The notes under the pieces: generated by a model
Told to the model about the DNA's origin: nothing
The model's input: only the letters and a program-made list of their open reading frames with translations
Database searches by the model: none
Made by a program: the position numbers and the translations under genes
Source of the DNA: a virus
Length of the DNA: 64,000 nucleotides
Strand: one strand, 5' to 3'
IMG/VR virus record: IMGVR_UViG_3300025789_001553
Location: 18,477 to 82,476 of that record
Shown here: positions 1,099 to 21,790 of the stretch, piece after piece
Layout: each line of letters opens with the position of its first letter
How positions within the stretch are numbered: the first letter of the stretch is position 1

Positions 1099-3663
1099 GT
1101 GTATCGTAACATTTATTACAGTCAACGAGATAGTATGTGTCATCTCTTTACGTGGGATGAGAATGGTAAGCGTGTAATCAAAAAAACACCTTATCAGCCT
1201 TATTTTTATGTAGAGACAAATGCTGAAACAGCTGATGCTTTATCTATCTTTAATACTAAGTTAAAGAAAAAAGTATTTAAGAGTAACTTTGATCGTAATA
1301 AAGCTGCACAAGACGGCGCCATTAAACGTCTATATCACAATATTCAGGTAGAGCAACAATTTCTTATTGAGCAGTTTAAAGACGAATACGAAAAACCTGA
1401 GTTTTCTGCTAACCCATTAAAGGTTTGCTTTCTTGATATCGAAGTTTATTCACCGGATGAGTTCCCTGAAGCTAAGGATGCAAAGCATCCTATCAATCTG
1501 TTAACTATATATGATAACCTTTCTGAACACTTTTATACCTGGGGTTGTAAGCCTTATACTCCGACTCGTGATAACGTTATATACACTCAATGCACAAGTG
1601 AATATAACCTTTTAGAAAAGTTTTTAGAGTTCTGGGAAAGCGGTTATTACCCTGATATACTATCAGGGTGGAATACAGACTTTTTCGACTTCCCTTATTT
1701 AATTAACCGTATTAATAACTTATTAGGAGAAGACGCAGCTAAGAGGTTATCCCCAGTAAAAAGTCTTTGGTGTCGTAAAGGTATCTTTGTTAAAGGTCAA
1801 GAGTTAGATCGTTGGTATATTCATGGTATATCTGCAATGGATTATCTCGAAGTGTACAGAGGTTTTGCTCGCGGTTTGTTAGAGTCGTATGCACTAAACT
1901 TTGTGGCACAACACGAATTAGGTGAAGGTAAATTAGCTATCAACGCTACCAACTTAGCTTCTCTATCTGAAAACGACTGGAATAACTTTGTAGATTATAA
2001 TATTCAAGACGTTGACCTGTTAGTACGAATGGAAAAGAAACTGCAATTCTTTAAGATTATTCGTATGTTAGCTTACAAAGGACTAACCTCGTTTGAAGCA
2101 GCTTTAGGTAAAGTTTCTATTGTTACCGGGTGCGTTGCACTACAAGCATATAAACACGGTATGGTTATACCAACATTCGTTGAAGGACCTCTACGCGAGG
2201 AAATTCAGGGTGGTTTCGTAAGAGAACCAGAAAGAGGCCTACAAAAGTCTATAGTAAGTTATGACGCTAACTCACTATACCCTAATACCATTATTACCTT
2301 GAATATATCCCCGGAGACTAAGTTCGGTAAAATAGTTAGTAAGAGTGATACTGAAGTGGTTATTCGTTACGGTAATAACAAAGAGCAGCCACTATCGCAT
2401 GAAAAGTTTATACAGTTTATGCAGGTTGAAAAACTTGCTCTATCTAAAGCAAATGTACTATACACGCAAAAGAAAAAAGGTGTGGTGCCTGCATTAATTG
2501 ATGGGCTGTATAAAGAGCGTGTAACCAATAAAAATCAGTACGTCGAATTTAAAAAGAAACTAAGTAAGTTAACTACAGATACAGATGAGTACAAAACGTG
2601 TAAGTTTAATATGGAACGAGCTGACACCATTCAGCACGTTATCAAAATTCTTCTTAACTCCATTTACGGTGTTTTTGCTAATAAGTTTAGCCCTATTTGC
2701 GATAGTGATCACGCCGGTAGCATTACTCTTACTGGTCAGTCAGTGGTTAAGCAAGCAAGTGATATCATTGATCAATACGCTAAGGAAAGGTTTGGCTACA
2801 CTGGTAAATCGTTAACTATATATAACGATACGGATAGTACTCACGTTACTATTCAACCTTTATTAGATCAAATGAAGTTAAACATATTAACTGAAAACAA
2901 GGTTAATAAAGAAGGTTTAAAGTTCATTGATGACGAATTAGGTGTATATCTTAACGAACATATTAAACAATGGGCTAAAGATAAACTCAACTCAATAGAC
3001 CCACGCTATTTCTTCAAACGTGAATCTATCTGTGATGTAGGAGTATACCTTGAAAAGAAACGCTACATTATACATGTATTAAATGACGAAGGTGCAGATG
3101 TTAGTAAGTTTAAATATGTTGGTGTTGAAATTGCACGTTCTACTACCCCTAAGAAAGCTAAAGAACTAATTAAAAAGGTTATTGAGAATAGCTTATTAGT
3201 ACAAGATCAAAATAAAGCAAACACTATTTATAGAGACGTTTATGATGGGTTTAAATCATTATCTATTGACGATGTAGCTATTAGAGGTGGTTTAAGTGAT
3301 TTAGAAAAACATGAAGTACGTTCAGAAGGGTTTAAAATAGCTAAAGGTACACCTAATCATGTCAAAGGAGCTATTTGGTATAACATGCTATTAAAACATA
3401 GAGGGTTAGAAACAAAGTACGAACGCATTACTTCAGGTGGTAAGGTAAAGAAGATTTATATTGCGCCTAACAGGTATAATATTGATACTCTTTGCTACCC
3501 TGTTAGTTTTCCACCAGAATTAAACGATTTTCAAGTTGATTATGAAGAAATGTTCGATACAATTATAGTACCTCCAGTAAAAGCAGTTTATGAAGCTCTT
3601 AACTGGCAGTTACCACAAGTAAACAATCAAGCACAAACAGACTTATTTGACCTATTCACATGA
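1099..3663 (+). CDS. Family B DNA polymerase (T4 gp43-like), GTG start
   Basis: Exo I FLDIE, Exo II GWNTDFFDFPY, Exo III YNIQD; polymerase motifs SYDANSLYP, KILLNSIYG, YNDTDS, KKRY. Confidence 0.97.
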   Translation: MYRNIYYSQRDSMCHLFTWDENGKRVIKKTPYQPYFYVETNAETADALSIFNTKLKKKVFKSNFDRNKAAQDGAIKRLYHNIQVEQQFLIEQFKDEYEKPEFSANPLKVCFLDIEVYSPDEFPEAKDAKHPINLLTIYDNLSEHFYTWGCKPYTPTRDNVIYTQCTSEYNLLEKFLEFWESGYYPDILSGWNTDFFDFPYLINRINNLLGEDAAKRLSPVKSLWCRKGIFVKGQELDRWYIHGISAMDYLEVYRGFARGLLESYALNFVAQHELGEGKLAINATNLASLSENDWNNFVDYNIQDVDLLVRMEKKLQFFKIIRMLAYKGLTSFEAALGKVSIVTGCVALQAYKHGMVIPTFVEGPLREEIQGGFVREPERGLQKSIVSYDANSLYPNTIITLNISPETKFGKIVSKSDTEVVIRYGNNKEQPLSHEKFIQFMQVEKLALSKANVLYTQKKKGVVPALIDGLYKERVTNKNQYVEFKKKLSKLTTDTDEYKTCKFNMERADTIQHVIKILLNSIYGVFANKFSPICDSDHAGSITLTGQSVVKQASDIIDQYAKERFGYTGKSLTIYNDTDSTHVTIQPLLDQMKLNILTENKVNKEGLKFIDDELGVYLNEHIKQWAKDKLNSIDPRYFFKRESICDVGVYLEKKRYIIHVLNDEGADVSKFKYVGVEIARSTTPKKAKELIKKVIENSLLVQDQNKANTIYRDVYDGFKSLSIDDVAIRGGLSDLEKHEVRSEGFKIAKGTPNHVKGAIWYNMLLKHRGLETKYERITSGGKVKKIYIAPNRYNIDTLCYPVSFPPELNDFQVDYEEMFDTIIVPPVKAVYEALNWQLPQVNNQAQTDLFDLFT

Positions 3664-4466
3664 TTAAAATATCTCACGAATCTCCTTTAAGTATGCTCGA
3701 GATCTCTCGTACATACAACGATTACTGCTACGCTTTAGTGCACCTCTTCGAAACTCACCCAGAATATTACAAGTTCTTTGAAGATAGTGTTAAAATGGGT
3801 AGACATGTCTTATTAGATAATTCTATCTTTGAATTAGGTGAATCTTTTAATCCTAAACGCTATGCTTATTGGATTCAAAGACTTAACCCTACAGAGTATA
3901 TCATACCAGACGTATTGGAGGATTGTAATGGTACAATTGAGTCTGCTAAGAAATGCTTATGGAGAGAATGGGACTTTGTTAACGATTCTAAAACTATCGG
4001 CGTGGTACAAGGTAAAACTTATGCTGAATTAGTTAAATGTTATGTAACTTTAGATCAAGAAATTGATGTAGATAAGTTAGCTATTTCATTTGACTATTCT
4101 TATTATCTCAAACTATTTCCGCACCCTAACAAATGGGTATCTTATATGATGGGTAGAGTAATGACTCTTAATCAATTAATGAATGATGGTATTATTAATA
4201 AAGATAAAACTCATCATTTATTAGGCTGTGCACACCCAAGAGAATTTAGTTTTTATCAAGGACCTGAATATAATTGGATTGAAACATTAGATACATCATC
4301 TCCTATTGTTCACGGTATTAAAAGAGTAAGATACTCTAATGCTATTGGTAACTGGAAAAAGGAGTCTACTAAGCTTGTAGATCTTTTAGATGTAATACCG
4401 GATGCAATGCAAGAAAAAATCATTGCAAATAATTTAATTGAGTTTAGAAACTACGTTAATGGATGA
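3660..4466 (+). CDS. dpdA: TGT-like (DpdA-family) 7-deazaguanine transglycosylase
   Basis: TGT-barrel motifs LLDNSIFE, IPDVL, GVVQG, HHLLG, LDTSSP; neighbours queF, folE and a formyltransferase. Confidence 0.7.
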   Translation: MIKISHESPLSMLEISRTYNDYCYALVHLFETHPEYYKFFEDSVKMGRHVLLDNSIFELGESFNPKRYAYWIQRLNPTEYIIPDVLEDCNGTIESAKKCLWREWDFVNDSKTIGVVQGKTYAELVKCYVTLDQEIDVDKLAISFDYSYYLKLFPHPNKWVSYMMGRVMTLNQLMNDGIINKDKTHHLLGCAHPREFSFYQGPEYNWIETLDTSSPIVHGIKRVRYSNAIGNWKKESTKLVDLLDVIPDAMQEKIIANNLIEFRNYVNG

Positions 4467-18288: not shown

Positions 18289-18539
18289 ACAACCCTGAAT
18301 TTGTAATACTCGATTCTTCAATTAAGTACATGCATGCTCGTAATGTGCTTGAAGAAGGCCTGTTTTACTGTGATAATAATACGTGGTCCCGTAATTTAGA
18401 ACGCGCTGTTAAATATTCCGATTCTAACAGTGCAGTTGACATAGCAAAGAAGCTTCAAGCTGAAGAGAATCTACCTAAAAGAGTGCTTTTAGTACAGAGA
18501 AACGGTAACAATATAAATGTAGGAGATGTTAAGTTTTAG
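18285..18539 (+). CDS. Hypothetical protein
   Basis: ATGA-coupled ORF. Confidence 0.55.
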   Translation: MNNPEFVILDSSIKYMHARNVLEEGLFYCDNNTWSRNLERAVKYSDSNSAVDIAKKLQAEENLPKRVLLVQRNGNNINVGDVKF

Positions 18540-19880: not shown

Positions 19881-19955
19881 GCGGGGTTAATTCAGTGGTA
19901 GAATATCTGCTTGCCAAGCAGGATGTCGGCGGTTCGAGCCCGCCACTCCGCTCCA
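19881..19955 (+). tRNA. tRNA-Gly(GCC)
   Basis: Acceptor GCGGGGT/ACTCCGC, anticodon arm TCTGC-TTGCCAA-GCAGG, T arm GGCGG-TTCGAGC-CCGCC, encoded CCA. Confidence 0.95.
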
Positions 19956-20599: not shown

Positions 20600-20643
20600 G
20601 GTAAATATATTATATTACTTATTGTTCTTTAACATATTTTAAT

Positions 20644-21026
20644 GGGCCTGTACCAGATTCGACTCTGTGGCAGATGTATTAGAAGCAAGCAGGATTAGTA
20701 AATCCTTTATAAATTACTACAAAAACAAACGGCATTATTCAAAGCCTCAAGAACGCAGTCGCTTCTGTAATGGATTCATTCAATACAAGCGAAAGCTTCG
20801 CACTCGCAGCTGCTTAAGCTCGATCGGTTGTAGTATAGATTCTCGCTATATATTATAACCGTCATTTAGCGAGACTGACTATTCAATGGTAGTAGAATAG
20901 CAGGAACACTACCAAACAACTTGTATATCAGCACTATGGATATACATTTTATTAATAGTGCTAAGCTTGTAGAAACTGATAAGAACGCTACGGAACACAG
21001 GGGTGCAACTCCCCTCAGGTCCACCA
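20644..21026 (+). ncRNA. ssrA: tmRNA; tag ORF 20731-20817 (A)GIIQSLKNAVASVMDSFNTSESFALAAA
   Basis: 5' GGGCCTG..GATTCGAC, 3' CAGGTCC-A-CCA with G3:U70 Ala identity pair, PK1 (AGGAT/ATCCT plus TAGTAA/TTACTA), tag ending FALAAA-stop. Confidence 0.93.
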
Positions 21027-21030
21027 TTTT

Positions 21031-21138
21031 ACGGCTGTTAAGGTGACACTATAGGGATCAAGGATGTAAACTTTTTTCACCTTTCTGTTTACGGTATCAA
21101 CGAATTGGCACTCGAGCTTGCAACCTATAGCCGTTACA
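21031..21138 (+). ncRNA. Unidentified structured RNA between tmRNA and tRNA-Tyr
   Basis: Terminal helix ACGGCTG/TAGCCGT plus internal complementarities; flanked by the same T-tracts that separate the tRNAs. Confidence 0.5.
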
Positions 21139-21146
21139 TTTTTTTT

Positions 21147-21231
21147 GGGTATATCGTATAGCGGCAATTACGGCAGACTGTAAATCTGCTGCCTCTCGGC
21201 TTCCTTGGTTCGAGTCCAAGTGTACCCACCA
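21147..21231 (+). tRNA. tRNA-Tyr(GTA)
   Basis: GGGTATA/TGTACCC acceptor, GCAGA-CTGTAAA-TCTGC, long variable arm, CCA. Confidence 0.95.
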
Positions 21232-21235
21232 TTTT

Positions 21236-21310
21236 ACGGACGTGGTATAACGGTCGTGCAACAGTCTCCAAAACTGTCTTATGAGGGTTCAACTCCTTCC
21301 GTCCGTGCCA
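21236..21310 (+). tRNA. tRNA-Trp(CCA)
   Basis: ACGGACG/CGTCCGT acceptor, ACAGT-CTCCAAA-ACTGT, CCA. Confidence 0.93.
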
Positions 21311-21317
21311 TTTTTTT

Positions 21318-21392
21318 GCCCCTATCGTCTAACGGTTAGGACATCGGATTTTCATTTCGCTAATCGCGGTTCGATTCCGCGTAGGGGTACCA
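21318..21392 (+). tRNA. tRNA-Glu(TTC)
   Basis: GCCCCTA/TAGGGGT acceptor, TCGGA-TTTTCAT-TTCGC (one mismatch), CGCGG-TTCGATT-CCGCG, CCA. Confidence 0.88.
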
Positions 21393-21547
21393 GTTTGTAA
21401 GTATTTAAAAATACTATAGAAATGATAGTTTATTCCTATGGATTTTTTCAATATTATATAAGAAACCTTAACTAAGTATTTGTGCTGGTGACATTATCCA
21501 GCATAACAACCAAAGCCCCCGGGCGGCGGTTCTCAACAAAACAACAC

Positions 21548-21733
21548 ATGCAAGTATTAATTATAACAAGTTATCTTGCTGTTGGTGGTCTTGTTAGACT
21601 CGCATACGAGGACTATAAGATAGGTAACAGTAAGACAAAGTCAAAGTTCGTTGAAAATATTAAAAAGTTTTGGAAAGGGTTTAAGGCAGCTTGGAAAGAA
21701 GCTATCTCAGCCCCACACCAACACTTATTTTAA
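21548..21733 (+). CDS. Small membrane protein (N-terminal TM, amphipathic basic tail)
   Basis: MQVLIITSYLAVGGLV; structured leader upstream, terminator downstream. Confidence 0.55.
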   Translation: MQVLIITSYLAVGGLVRLAYEDYKIGNSKTKSKFVENIKKFWKGFKAAWKEAISAPHQHLF

Positions 21734-21756
21734 TATTATAAGTTAGAAAAACAATG

Positions 21757-21790
21757 CCCGGCTTGGAGTAATCTGAGCCGGGTTTTTTTT
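21757..21790 (+). terminator. Rho-independent terminator
   Basis: CCCGGCTTGGA-GTAA-TCTGAGCCGGG-T8. Confidence 0.85.

Follow-up and report, generated by a model that had tools for sequence, protein, structure and literature searches.

A pseudoknotted RNA of the At1 family (RF02496) between the tmRNA and tRNA genes of a phage

A stretch of 64,000 nucleotides (nt) from a virus (IMG/VR record IMGVR_UViG_3300025789_001553, positions 18,477 to 82,476 of that record; hereafter the window) carries, directly behind a transfer-messenger RNA (tmRNA) gene and ahead of three tRNA genes, a structured RNA at 21031-21134 on the plus strand. A preliminary description, made from the sequence alone, had flagged 21031-21138 as an unexplained, new non-coding RNA. 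The flagged stretch is almost certainly a member of the At1 family (Rfam RF02496), an orphan RNA class that is already catalogued in Rfam, with carriers among soil bacteria and numerous uncultured phages. In aligned relatives, compensatory changes preserve five helices together with a loop-loop pseudoknot of 7 bp. We favour, at a probability of roughly 0.55, a composite explanation in which the phage At1 RNA would be cut from a tmRNA-tRNA precursor and, in its folded state, would act in trans on a conserved factor of the host.

Family membership and fold

The Rfam model RF02496 (Atu_At1, 'Rhizobiales sRNA', for small RNA) matched 21027-21134 over its full length (model positions 1-108 of 108) with 63.3 bits, a narrow margin over the gathering score of 60. 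The E-value was 3.7e-8 in the 64-kb window and 2e-10 in 351 nt, and a match above the cut-off occurs only once in the whole phage record. The family core, CAACGAAnUGGCAnnCGAGC, which lies between P4 and the 3' strand of P3, is present in the window at 21098-21117; its positions are written in upper case, i.e. are highly conserved, in the independent Rfam consensus. A covariance model of our own, R1, scored the window copy at 105.1 bits, but the window sequence is part of the R1 seed. No other Rfam model, and specifically no tRNA-clan (CL00001) and no ribozyme family, fitted the stretch at E<=10 (seven matches listed). An Rfam scan, which the preliminary description had proposed as a check, thus returned a family match and not a decayed tRNA, and the full-length hit above a curated cut-off contradicts the idea of a new class of RNA.

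In its helices, its core and its loop-loop complementarity the window RNA agrees with RF02496, the complementary loops reading CCGG/CCGG in the Rfam consensus and AGGUGA/UCACCU in the window. The structure line in Rfam draws no pseudoknot; we propose it here as a feature of the family. When 16 clear relatives were tested, nine reached the RF02496 cut-off. Since the other seven fell below it, the catalogue entry captures only part of the family.

Folded as a single sequence, the RNA had a minimum free energy of -22.6 kcal/mol, as compared with -20.55 +/- 2.88 for shuffled sequences (z -0.71; 42 of 200 shuffles folded as well). As the single sequence is no better than its shuffles, the case for the fold rests on relatives. 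In an alignment of 42 distinct phage relatives made with MAFFT, and not fitted to any structure, 88.7% of cells paired, as compared with 70.8% in shuffles and 33-49% when the partners were slid, and 28 of the 37 pairs had changed on both sides. The covariation score was 0.510; shuffles gave 0.190, with none of 500 reaching the observed value, and slid partners gave 0.06-0.15. A second alignment, of 31 bacterial matches, was produced by a model without the loop-loop helix and is therefore an independent test of the pseudoknot. Here both-sided changes were present in 29 of 37 pairs, and again the observed score was reached by none of 500 shuffles. The loop-loop helix itself could form in 90.3% of cells in the phage set (five of seven pairs changed on both sides) and in 95.7% in the bacterial set (six of seven). 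The core motif had served as the search pattern, so its invariance in our own alignments is forced.

The elements of the fold in the window, all on the plus strand, are as follows.

21031-21035 with 21130-21134 (+): P1, ACGGC/GCCGU (helix 1; both alignments show both-sided changes in 7 of 7 pairs)
21036-21038 with 21046-21048 (+): P1a, a short hairpin, UGU/ACA; weak, with 75-85% of cells pairing and little covariation
21040-21046 (+): pseudoknot strand 1, AAGGUGA, in the P1a loop; strongly supported
21050-21055 with 21124-21129 (+): P2, UAUAGG/CCUAUA (helix 4; both-sided changes in 5 of 6 pairs in the phage set and 6 of 6 in the bacterial set)
21059-21062 with 21117-21120 (+): P3, CAAG/CUUG (helix 5; 97.6-100% of cells pair, 3 of 4 pairs changed on both sides)
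21065-21093 (+): P4 hairpin, UGUAAAC/GUUUACG, 21065-21071 with 21087-21093 (helix 6; 7 of 7 pairs changed on both sides)
21077-21083 (+): pseudoknot strand 2, UCACCUU, in the 15-nt U-rich P4 loop (21072-21086)
21094-21117 (+): P5 mini-hairpin and the conserved core, CAACGAAUUGGCA-CU-CGAGC at 21098-21117, after the Rfam consensus

All of P1-P5 are able to form in the window copy. Judged from the aligned relatives, P1 closes a fold of about 104 nt and runs on into P2 and P3, at the top of which a junction carries the P4 and P5 hairpins and a highly conserved, purine-rich core. The U-rich P4 loop is predicted to fold back and to form 7 bp with the loop between P1 and P2. A by-eye comparison with the k-turn, T-loop, loop E and hammerhead core motifs gave no convincing fit.

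The pairings listed in the preliminary description, and the T-tracts on either side of the RNA, are all present. AAGGTGA (21040-21046) and TCACCTT (21077-21083) form the family pseudoknot, CTATAGG (21049-21055) and CCTATAG (21124-21130) correspond to P2, and GTAAAC (21066-21071) and GTTTAC (21087-21092) to P4; GCAA is found at 21120-21123. The acceptor-like 7-bp helix of ACGGCTG (21031-21037) and TAGCCGT (21128-21134) survives in its first five pairs, which are P1, but not in its last two (U-A and G-U), which compete with P2 and the short hairpin and are not conserved. It is followed by T (21135) and ACA (21136-21138), a tail that had also been noted and which reads TTTA in the close relatives L008 and L052. 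The preliminary description holds in that the stretch is a discrete RNA gene, structured and non-coding, whose helices cross in a true pseudoknot, and that it is not a tRNA. It was also correct in seeing no open reading frame (ORF): none of at least 60 aa was found on the plus strand across the RNA stretch, and the minus-strand ORFs overlapping it are chance frames of 50-54 aa only. The collection of homologs and analysis of covariation that it had recommended revealed both conservation and covariation.

Relatives, promoters and transcripts

Relatives were sought with a pattern consisting of the 20-letter conserved core with three free positions, which was found in 70 viral contigs and at least 120 bacterial contigs. 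R1, built from 42 distinct phage sequences that match it by construction, recognized 60 of the 70 loci from viral contigs, with scores of 72-122 bits; the other ten gave no match at E<=0.01. Among the bacterial matches listed, 29 of 80 and 17 of 40 loci, 46 of 120 in all, scored at least 70 bits. By record title 45 of these 46 are alphaproteobacterial, the exception being a 4-kb contig binned with a Bdellovibrio metagenome-assembled genome (MAG). The carriers include Rhizobium, Agrobacterium, Mesorhizobium, Devosia, Phyllobacterium, Pseudaminobacter, Ciceribacter, Bosea, Sphingomonas and Sphingopyxis, among others. Many Collinsella and other loci with the core pattern had no R1 match at E<=0.01, and are presumably chance or coding matches. 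The name of RF02496 implies Rhizobiales only, yet 60 phage-contig loci carry the family, and the phage copies span 38-62% GC with the same core. The window copy lies at the AT-rich end (39% GC).

The distribution of At1 is patchy. RF02496 was detected in 13 of 41 sampled genomes of the family to which an Agrobacterium carrier (G001) belongs, with up to four copies, and in none of 150 other sampled genomes of its class, a weak negative in that only 23-70 first-look candidates were scored per genome. By BLAST, 82 plasmid records matched; in three of them the neighbours were unrelated genes and not prophage genes. A BLAST search of 50,697 cultured-phage records with an 821-nt query from the array matched tRNA genes only, and queries with the RNA alone or with a GC-rich relative returned only matches of 22-40 nt at E>=1, so that no carrier emerged among these records, BLAST being a weak tool for a short RNA. 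Two further observations were made on individual loci. L043, a contig filed as viral, and a Pseudaminobacter chromosome locus (L104) have the same At1 copy behind the same EcfG-like upstream motif, and L043 may be prophage or cellular DNA. In a Sphingopyxis MAG (L088) an At1 copy (3226-3333 (-)) lies about 150 nt from a tRNA gene (3004-3074 (+)), which may mark the integration site of a mobile element.

The preliminary description had called the RNA tRNA-array-associated. ARAGORN found tRNAs in just one of the 45 related loci scanned (L057), and that label is not supported. The tmRNA directly upstream, and the same UUUU spacer, are kept in five close relatives (L003, L008, L039, L044 and L052), and Rfam calls the tmRNA in L008; the sequence behind the RNA differs between relatives in this clade. 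The tRNA-array setting is thus peculiar to the clade of the window, and elsewhere At1 is a stand-alone gene.

Promoter-like sites precede many of these stand-alone copies. A TAnnnT box ending 4-10 nt before P1 was present in 19 of 42 distinct phage copies, as compared with 13.4% of background positions. In eight of the 42 the RNA is preceded by a TATAAATA/TTTAAATA box (background 0.18%), which we take to be of the T4 late-promoter type. Among alphaproteobacterial copies, G[GA]AAC-N15-18-NGTT occurred within 70 nt upstream in 24 of 45, against 78 of 9603 background windows, and the strict form GGAAC-N16-17-CGTT in 14 of 45, against 13 of 9603. The strict form corresponds to the sigma-EcfG general-stress consensus.

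Such EcfG-like promoters agree with the growth-phase record of the founding member. At1 is located on the At plasmid of Agrobacterium tumefaciens C58 (Wilms 2012, PMC3384568; Lee 2013, PMC3738593). Its length is reported as 113 nt by differential RNA sequencing and 115 nt by blotting, with the strongest signal at high optical density (PMC3384568). Under the name pAT_55271R it is reported as a 118-nt RNA validated by rapid amplification of cDNA ends, whose reads persist after terminator exonuclease (TEX) treatment (PMC3738593). In the latter study it reached 866 reads per kilobase per million in stationary phase and 3597 in AB medium, as compared with 45 in log phase. The accessible portions of these two reports (PMC3384568, PMC3738593) give no function for At1. 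A discrete transcript of about 110-120 nt has been seen for A. tumefaciens only. No link to At1 could be made from the RpoE2-dependent sRNAs named in the accessible portion of PMC3616915. A literature search by Rfam name, accession and subject terms listed no paper on the family, the accession matching only 'orf02496'. The literature searched mentions neither the pseudoknot nor the breadth of the family in phages, and neither the EcfG-type promoters nor the link to the tmRNA in the clade of the window.

No protein-coding gene is constantly associated with the RNA across its groups. When ORFs within 3 kb were clustered for 90 loci, no protein cluster was common to all RNA groups; the largest neighbour cluster (22 loci) is confined to one phage group, and a few smaller ones, the Dps-like cluster for example, join two groups. 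Neighbours in phages vary, and include terminase, endolysin, ribonucleotide reductase, holin, exonucleases and DNA polymerase. The genes downstream of bacterial copies are mutually unrelated.

A ferritin-like (Dps-type) gene of 143-144 aa adjoins the RNA in nine of the 60 phage loci (L005, 3651-4079 (-); L071, 2021-2449 (+); L058, L033, L065, L023, L032, L049 and L056). In four of these loci its stop codon directly abuts the RNA, which looks there like a 3' untranslated region of the gene. No Dps-type gene was found near bacterial copies, nor in three of the phage records (G000, which is the record of the window, G004 and G005).

The tmRNA-At1-tRNA array and a composite explanation

The phage record is 82,476 bases long and was estimated by CheckV to be 39% complete; a sister record (G004) has 140,720 bases. 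The stretch occurs in DNA runs labelled freshwater metagenome, at least half of the sampled words being present in 18 of them. Proteins around the array matched PHROG families of head-maturation/ClpP-like protease, exonuclease, methyltransferase and glycosyltransferase. The features of the array are listed below.

19881-19955 (+): tRNA-Gly (ARAGORN, Rfam)
20644-21026 (+): phage tmRNA with an encoded CCA end, directly upstream of the At1 RNA (Rfam RF00023, 74 bits, model 1-374 of 374)
21027-21030 (+): UUUU spacer from the tmRNA CCA end to P1, identical in five close relatives
21031-21134 (+): At1-family (RF02496) structured RNA, from the first to the last P1 base (covariance models)
21135-21146 (+): trailer UACAUUUUUUUU from P1 to tRNA-Tyr (sequence; not conserved in L008 or L003)
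21147-21231 (+): tRNA-Tyr (ARAGORN; Rfam tRNA, 52-57 bits for the three downstream tRNAs)
21236-21310 (+): tRNA-Trp (ARAGORN; Rfam tRNA)
21318-21392 (+): tRNA-Glu (ARAGORN; Rfam tRNA)
21482-21733: 83-aa ORF ahead of the terminator-like hairpin
21756-21783 (+): terminator-like hairpin with a 12-pair stem (seven G-C) and then T7 (consensus match only)

The tmRNA at 20644-21026 was not called by ARAGORN. The RNA is flanked by T-tracts (TTTT at 21027-21030 and T8 at 21139-21146), and similar spacers separate the three tRNAs (21232-21235 and 21311-21317). It starts 4 nt past the tmRNA CCA. An own promoter directly before P1 is a usual, though not a defining, trait of the family; in the window copy it is missing, and no sigma-70-like promoter was found between the tmRNA CCA and P1. 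This spacing of 4 nt, with no promoter-like site in it, argues that the window copy is part of a tmRNA-At1-tRNA precursor. The hairpin at 21756-21783 is the probable end of that transcription unit.

On the composite explanation the window copy, which lacks a promoter of its own, would be transcribed within a tmRNA-At1-tRNA(Tyr, Trp, Glu) precursor. Maturation of the neighbouring RNAs by host enzymes would set it free, the 3' end of the tmRNA being trimmed ahead of it and RNase P cutting at tRNA-Tyr behind it. The ends of the RNA would then be protected by P1, where exonucleases would come to a halt. The folded RNA would subsequently act in trans by binding a conserved host protein or machine, and not as an antisense RNA or in cis. 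A conserved host partner, bound by shape, is suggested by the retention of the core across 38-62% GC and in both cellular and viral carriers.

Several points weigh against this explanation. The maturation of tRNA clusters by RNase P and exonucleases is textbook knowledge, and it is on this that the processing step rests for the present array. The covarying loop-loop helix may form within one molecule or between molecules. In the RNA libraries, six lake-water RNA runs contained small shares of the sampled words; the contigs of four such runs covered, within 20600-21450, only the tmRNA (20657-20952, 90-99% likeness). The tmRNA of the window, or that of a close relative, is thus present in RNA libraries, whereas no contig from the four runs lay over the At1 stretch, a result that is uninformative in either direction. 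Finally, the surroundings of some copies would suit a role in cis. At least 11 of the 29 bacterial loci inspected for this feature (28 alphaproteobacterial loci and L123) have an ORF, preceded by a Shine-Dalgarno sequence, that starts 18-35 nt downstream of the RNA. In L007 no terminator follows the RNA, and a promoter-like site, TTGACA-16-TAACAT (4276-4303 (-)), overlaps its 3' end and is followed by a small ORF, then by a gene for a protein of some 160 aa and by the large-terminase gene. The RNA thus heads the packaging module in the phage group of L007. Some members may act in cis.

Alternative explanations and significance

Extended to the whole family, such a role would make At1 a cis-acting leader, either a riboswitch-like sensor or an antitermination RNA of the processive put/EAR type, controlling the genes behind it. 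The few nucleotides between promoter and RNA in most independent copies, the Shine-Dalgarno sequences and second promoter-like site just described, and the long unit in which the window copy reaches the terminator-like site at 21756-21783 would all fit, and a fold with conserved junction nucleotides and a pseudoknot resembles aptamers. However, the downstream genes are unrelated to one another, and in six phage loci (L010, L011, L032, L006, L050 and L071) the next downstream gene is convergent, so that the RNA cannot be a leader there. This led us to reject a leader or cis-antitermination role as the general case. The discrete species of about 115 nt in Agrobacterium (PMC3384568) speaks against it as well, as does the fact that the RNAs flanking the window copy are themselves cut out. 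We consider a leader unlikely, and the 'switch' of the preliminary description gained no support from downstream genes or folds.

Somewhat less likely again is an RNA that assembles with itself, the loops pairing between molecules to give dimers or rings that serve as a scaffold or sponge. Covariation proves that the loops pair, but it cannot separate pairing in cis from pairing in trans. A likeness exists to the pRNA of phi29, a phage RNA of about 120 nt with two complementary, covarying loops. There the pairing, of 4 nt, is intermolecular, and the molecule belongs to the packaging motor of a single phage group; no Rfam match of the pRNA model was found on the window RNA. ROOL and GOLLD are also phage- or prophage-borne, often near tRNA islands, rich in pseudoknots, and without known partner or function; they form homo-oligomeric nanocages without protein partners (PMC12286853). 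Cage assembly has been shown for ROOL and GOLLD, whereas for At1 it would be conjecture by analogy. Both are larger than the window RNA by a factor of 5-8 and match it neither by sequence nor by model, At1 being about five-fold smaller than the known cage RNAs. Moreover, the helix lengths are compatible with an intramolecular fold, P4 and the pseudoknot making 14 bp against about 13 layers of P2, internal loop and P3.

To a similar degree we doubt that At1 is a base-pairing sRNA of the Hfq type, with host or phage mRNAs as the targets of an exposed, conserved stretch. Its founding member came from sRNA screens and is regulated by growth phase (PMC3384568, PMC3738593), and its P4 loop is U-rich. 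General-stress sigma factors drive such sRNAs, as in the case of GsrN of Caulobacter and its relatives, an alphaproteobacterial sRNA under sigma-EcfG and the general stress response (GSR) (PMC5869019); At1 copies too are found behind EcfG-like motifs. GsrN pairs with mRNAs through an exposed C-rich 5' loop and lies near the GSR locus (ecfG-nepR-phyR) (PMC5869019), whereas the At1 fold has no C-rich loop and is pseudoknotted, and the neighbours of plasmid copies are unrelated genes. Identity with GsrN was therefore rejected. Nearly all conserved nucleotides of At1 lie in helices, the pseudoknot or the junction, and most copies lack a canonical terminator or U-tail. The core is kept in phage copies of 38-62% GC, presumably from very different hosts, which makes a shared mRNA target an unlikely explanation. 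At1 is not in the main text, the part consulted, of the Agrobacterium Hfq RNA immunoprecipitation sequencing paper (PMC4201532).

A self-cleaving ribozyme that trims the array, with the hepatitis delta virus (HDV)-like order of pairing noted in the preliminary description, is very improbable. The compact pseudoknotted fold, the conserved core and the lack of a constant gene context are those of small ribozyme classes, but at E<=10 no Rfam ribozyme family matched, HDV-like or other. In other members the RNA begins at a fixed short distance behind a promoter, of three types, which makes the 5' end a primary one rather than the result of cleavage; TEX-resistant reads (PMC3738593) agree with a transcription start, and blots show the full-length RNA (PMC3384568). 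The ends of the neighbouring RNAs are explained by RNase P. We conclude that the At1 RNA is probably not a self-cleaving ribozyme. A decayed tRNA, a tRNA mimic or decoy, or a Y-RNA-like molecule, as was also suggested, has been largely refuted. The location in the array and the terminal helix of 5-7 bp right after a UUUU spacer, as in the tRNA neighbours, had favoured it. Neither ARAGORN, which called four tRNAs in the window, nor the tRNA-clan models of Rfam called the RNA, no Rfam model for a mimic, decoy or Y RNA matched at E<=10, there is no T arm or anticodon arm, and neither the tRNA setting nor the ACA tail is conserved among relatives. The RNAs rnaC and rnaD (species 1 and 2) of T4 are likewise small stable RNAs of unknown function, placed head-to-tail with phage tRNAs. 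They are matured together with the tRNAs of their cluster. A tRNA-like T arm is present in T4 rnaC but absent from the window RNA. RF02496 was absent from the T4 region at E<=10, and R1 found nothing in L001 at E<=0.01; with neither model matching, homology to rnaC and rnaD was rejected.

The composite explanation may be part of a wider one, which we hold tentatively and think possible but not probable. At1 would be a small, horizontally mobile RNA device, used by alphaproteobacteria under general-stress sigma factors and by many unrelated lytic phages, often under late-type promoters, to re-program a universal machine of the host, be it the ribosome, RNA polymerase or the apparatus of RNA decay, once a cell has stopped growing or is close to lysis. 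The device might act as a kissing-loop multimer. The Dps-like genes beside some phage copies hint at a shared starvation or oxidative-stress module.

At a practical level, a gap in a tmRNA-tRNA array can now be annotated as a known family, and the tRNA setting does not point to a tRNA-like function but is a lineage-specific way of expressing At1. The evidence that this orphan RNA adopts a complex fold (five helices, a pseudoknot and a conserved core) is unusually strong, and the RNA is common to cellular stress regulons and many uncultured phages. Genetically tractable hosts that already express it are at hand in Agrobacterium or Rhizobium. RNAs of this kind (6S, Y RNA, OLE, ROOL and GOLLD) have repeatedly proved unexpected in their action, and the mobile device outlined above, if true, would be a new '6S-like' class of global RNA regulator.

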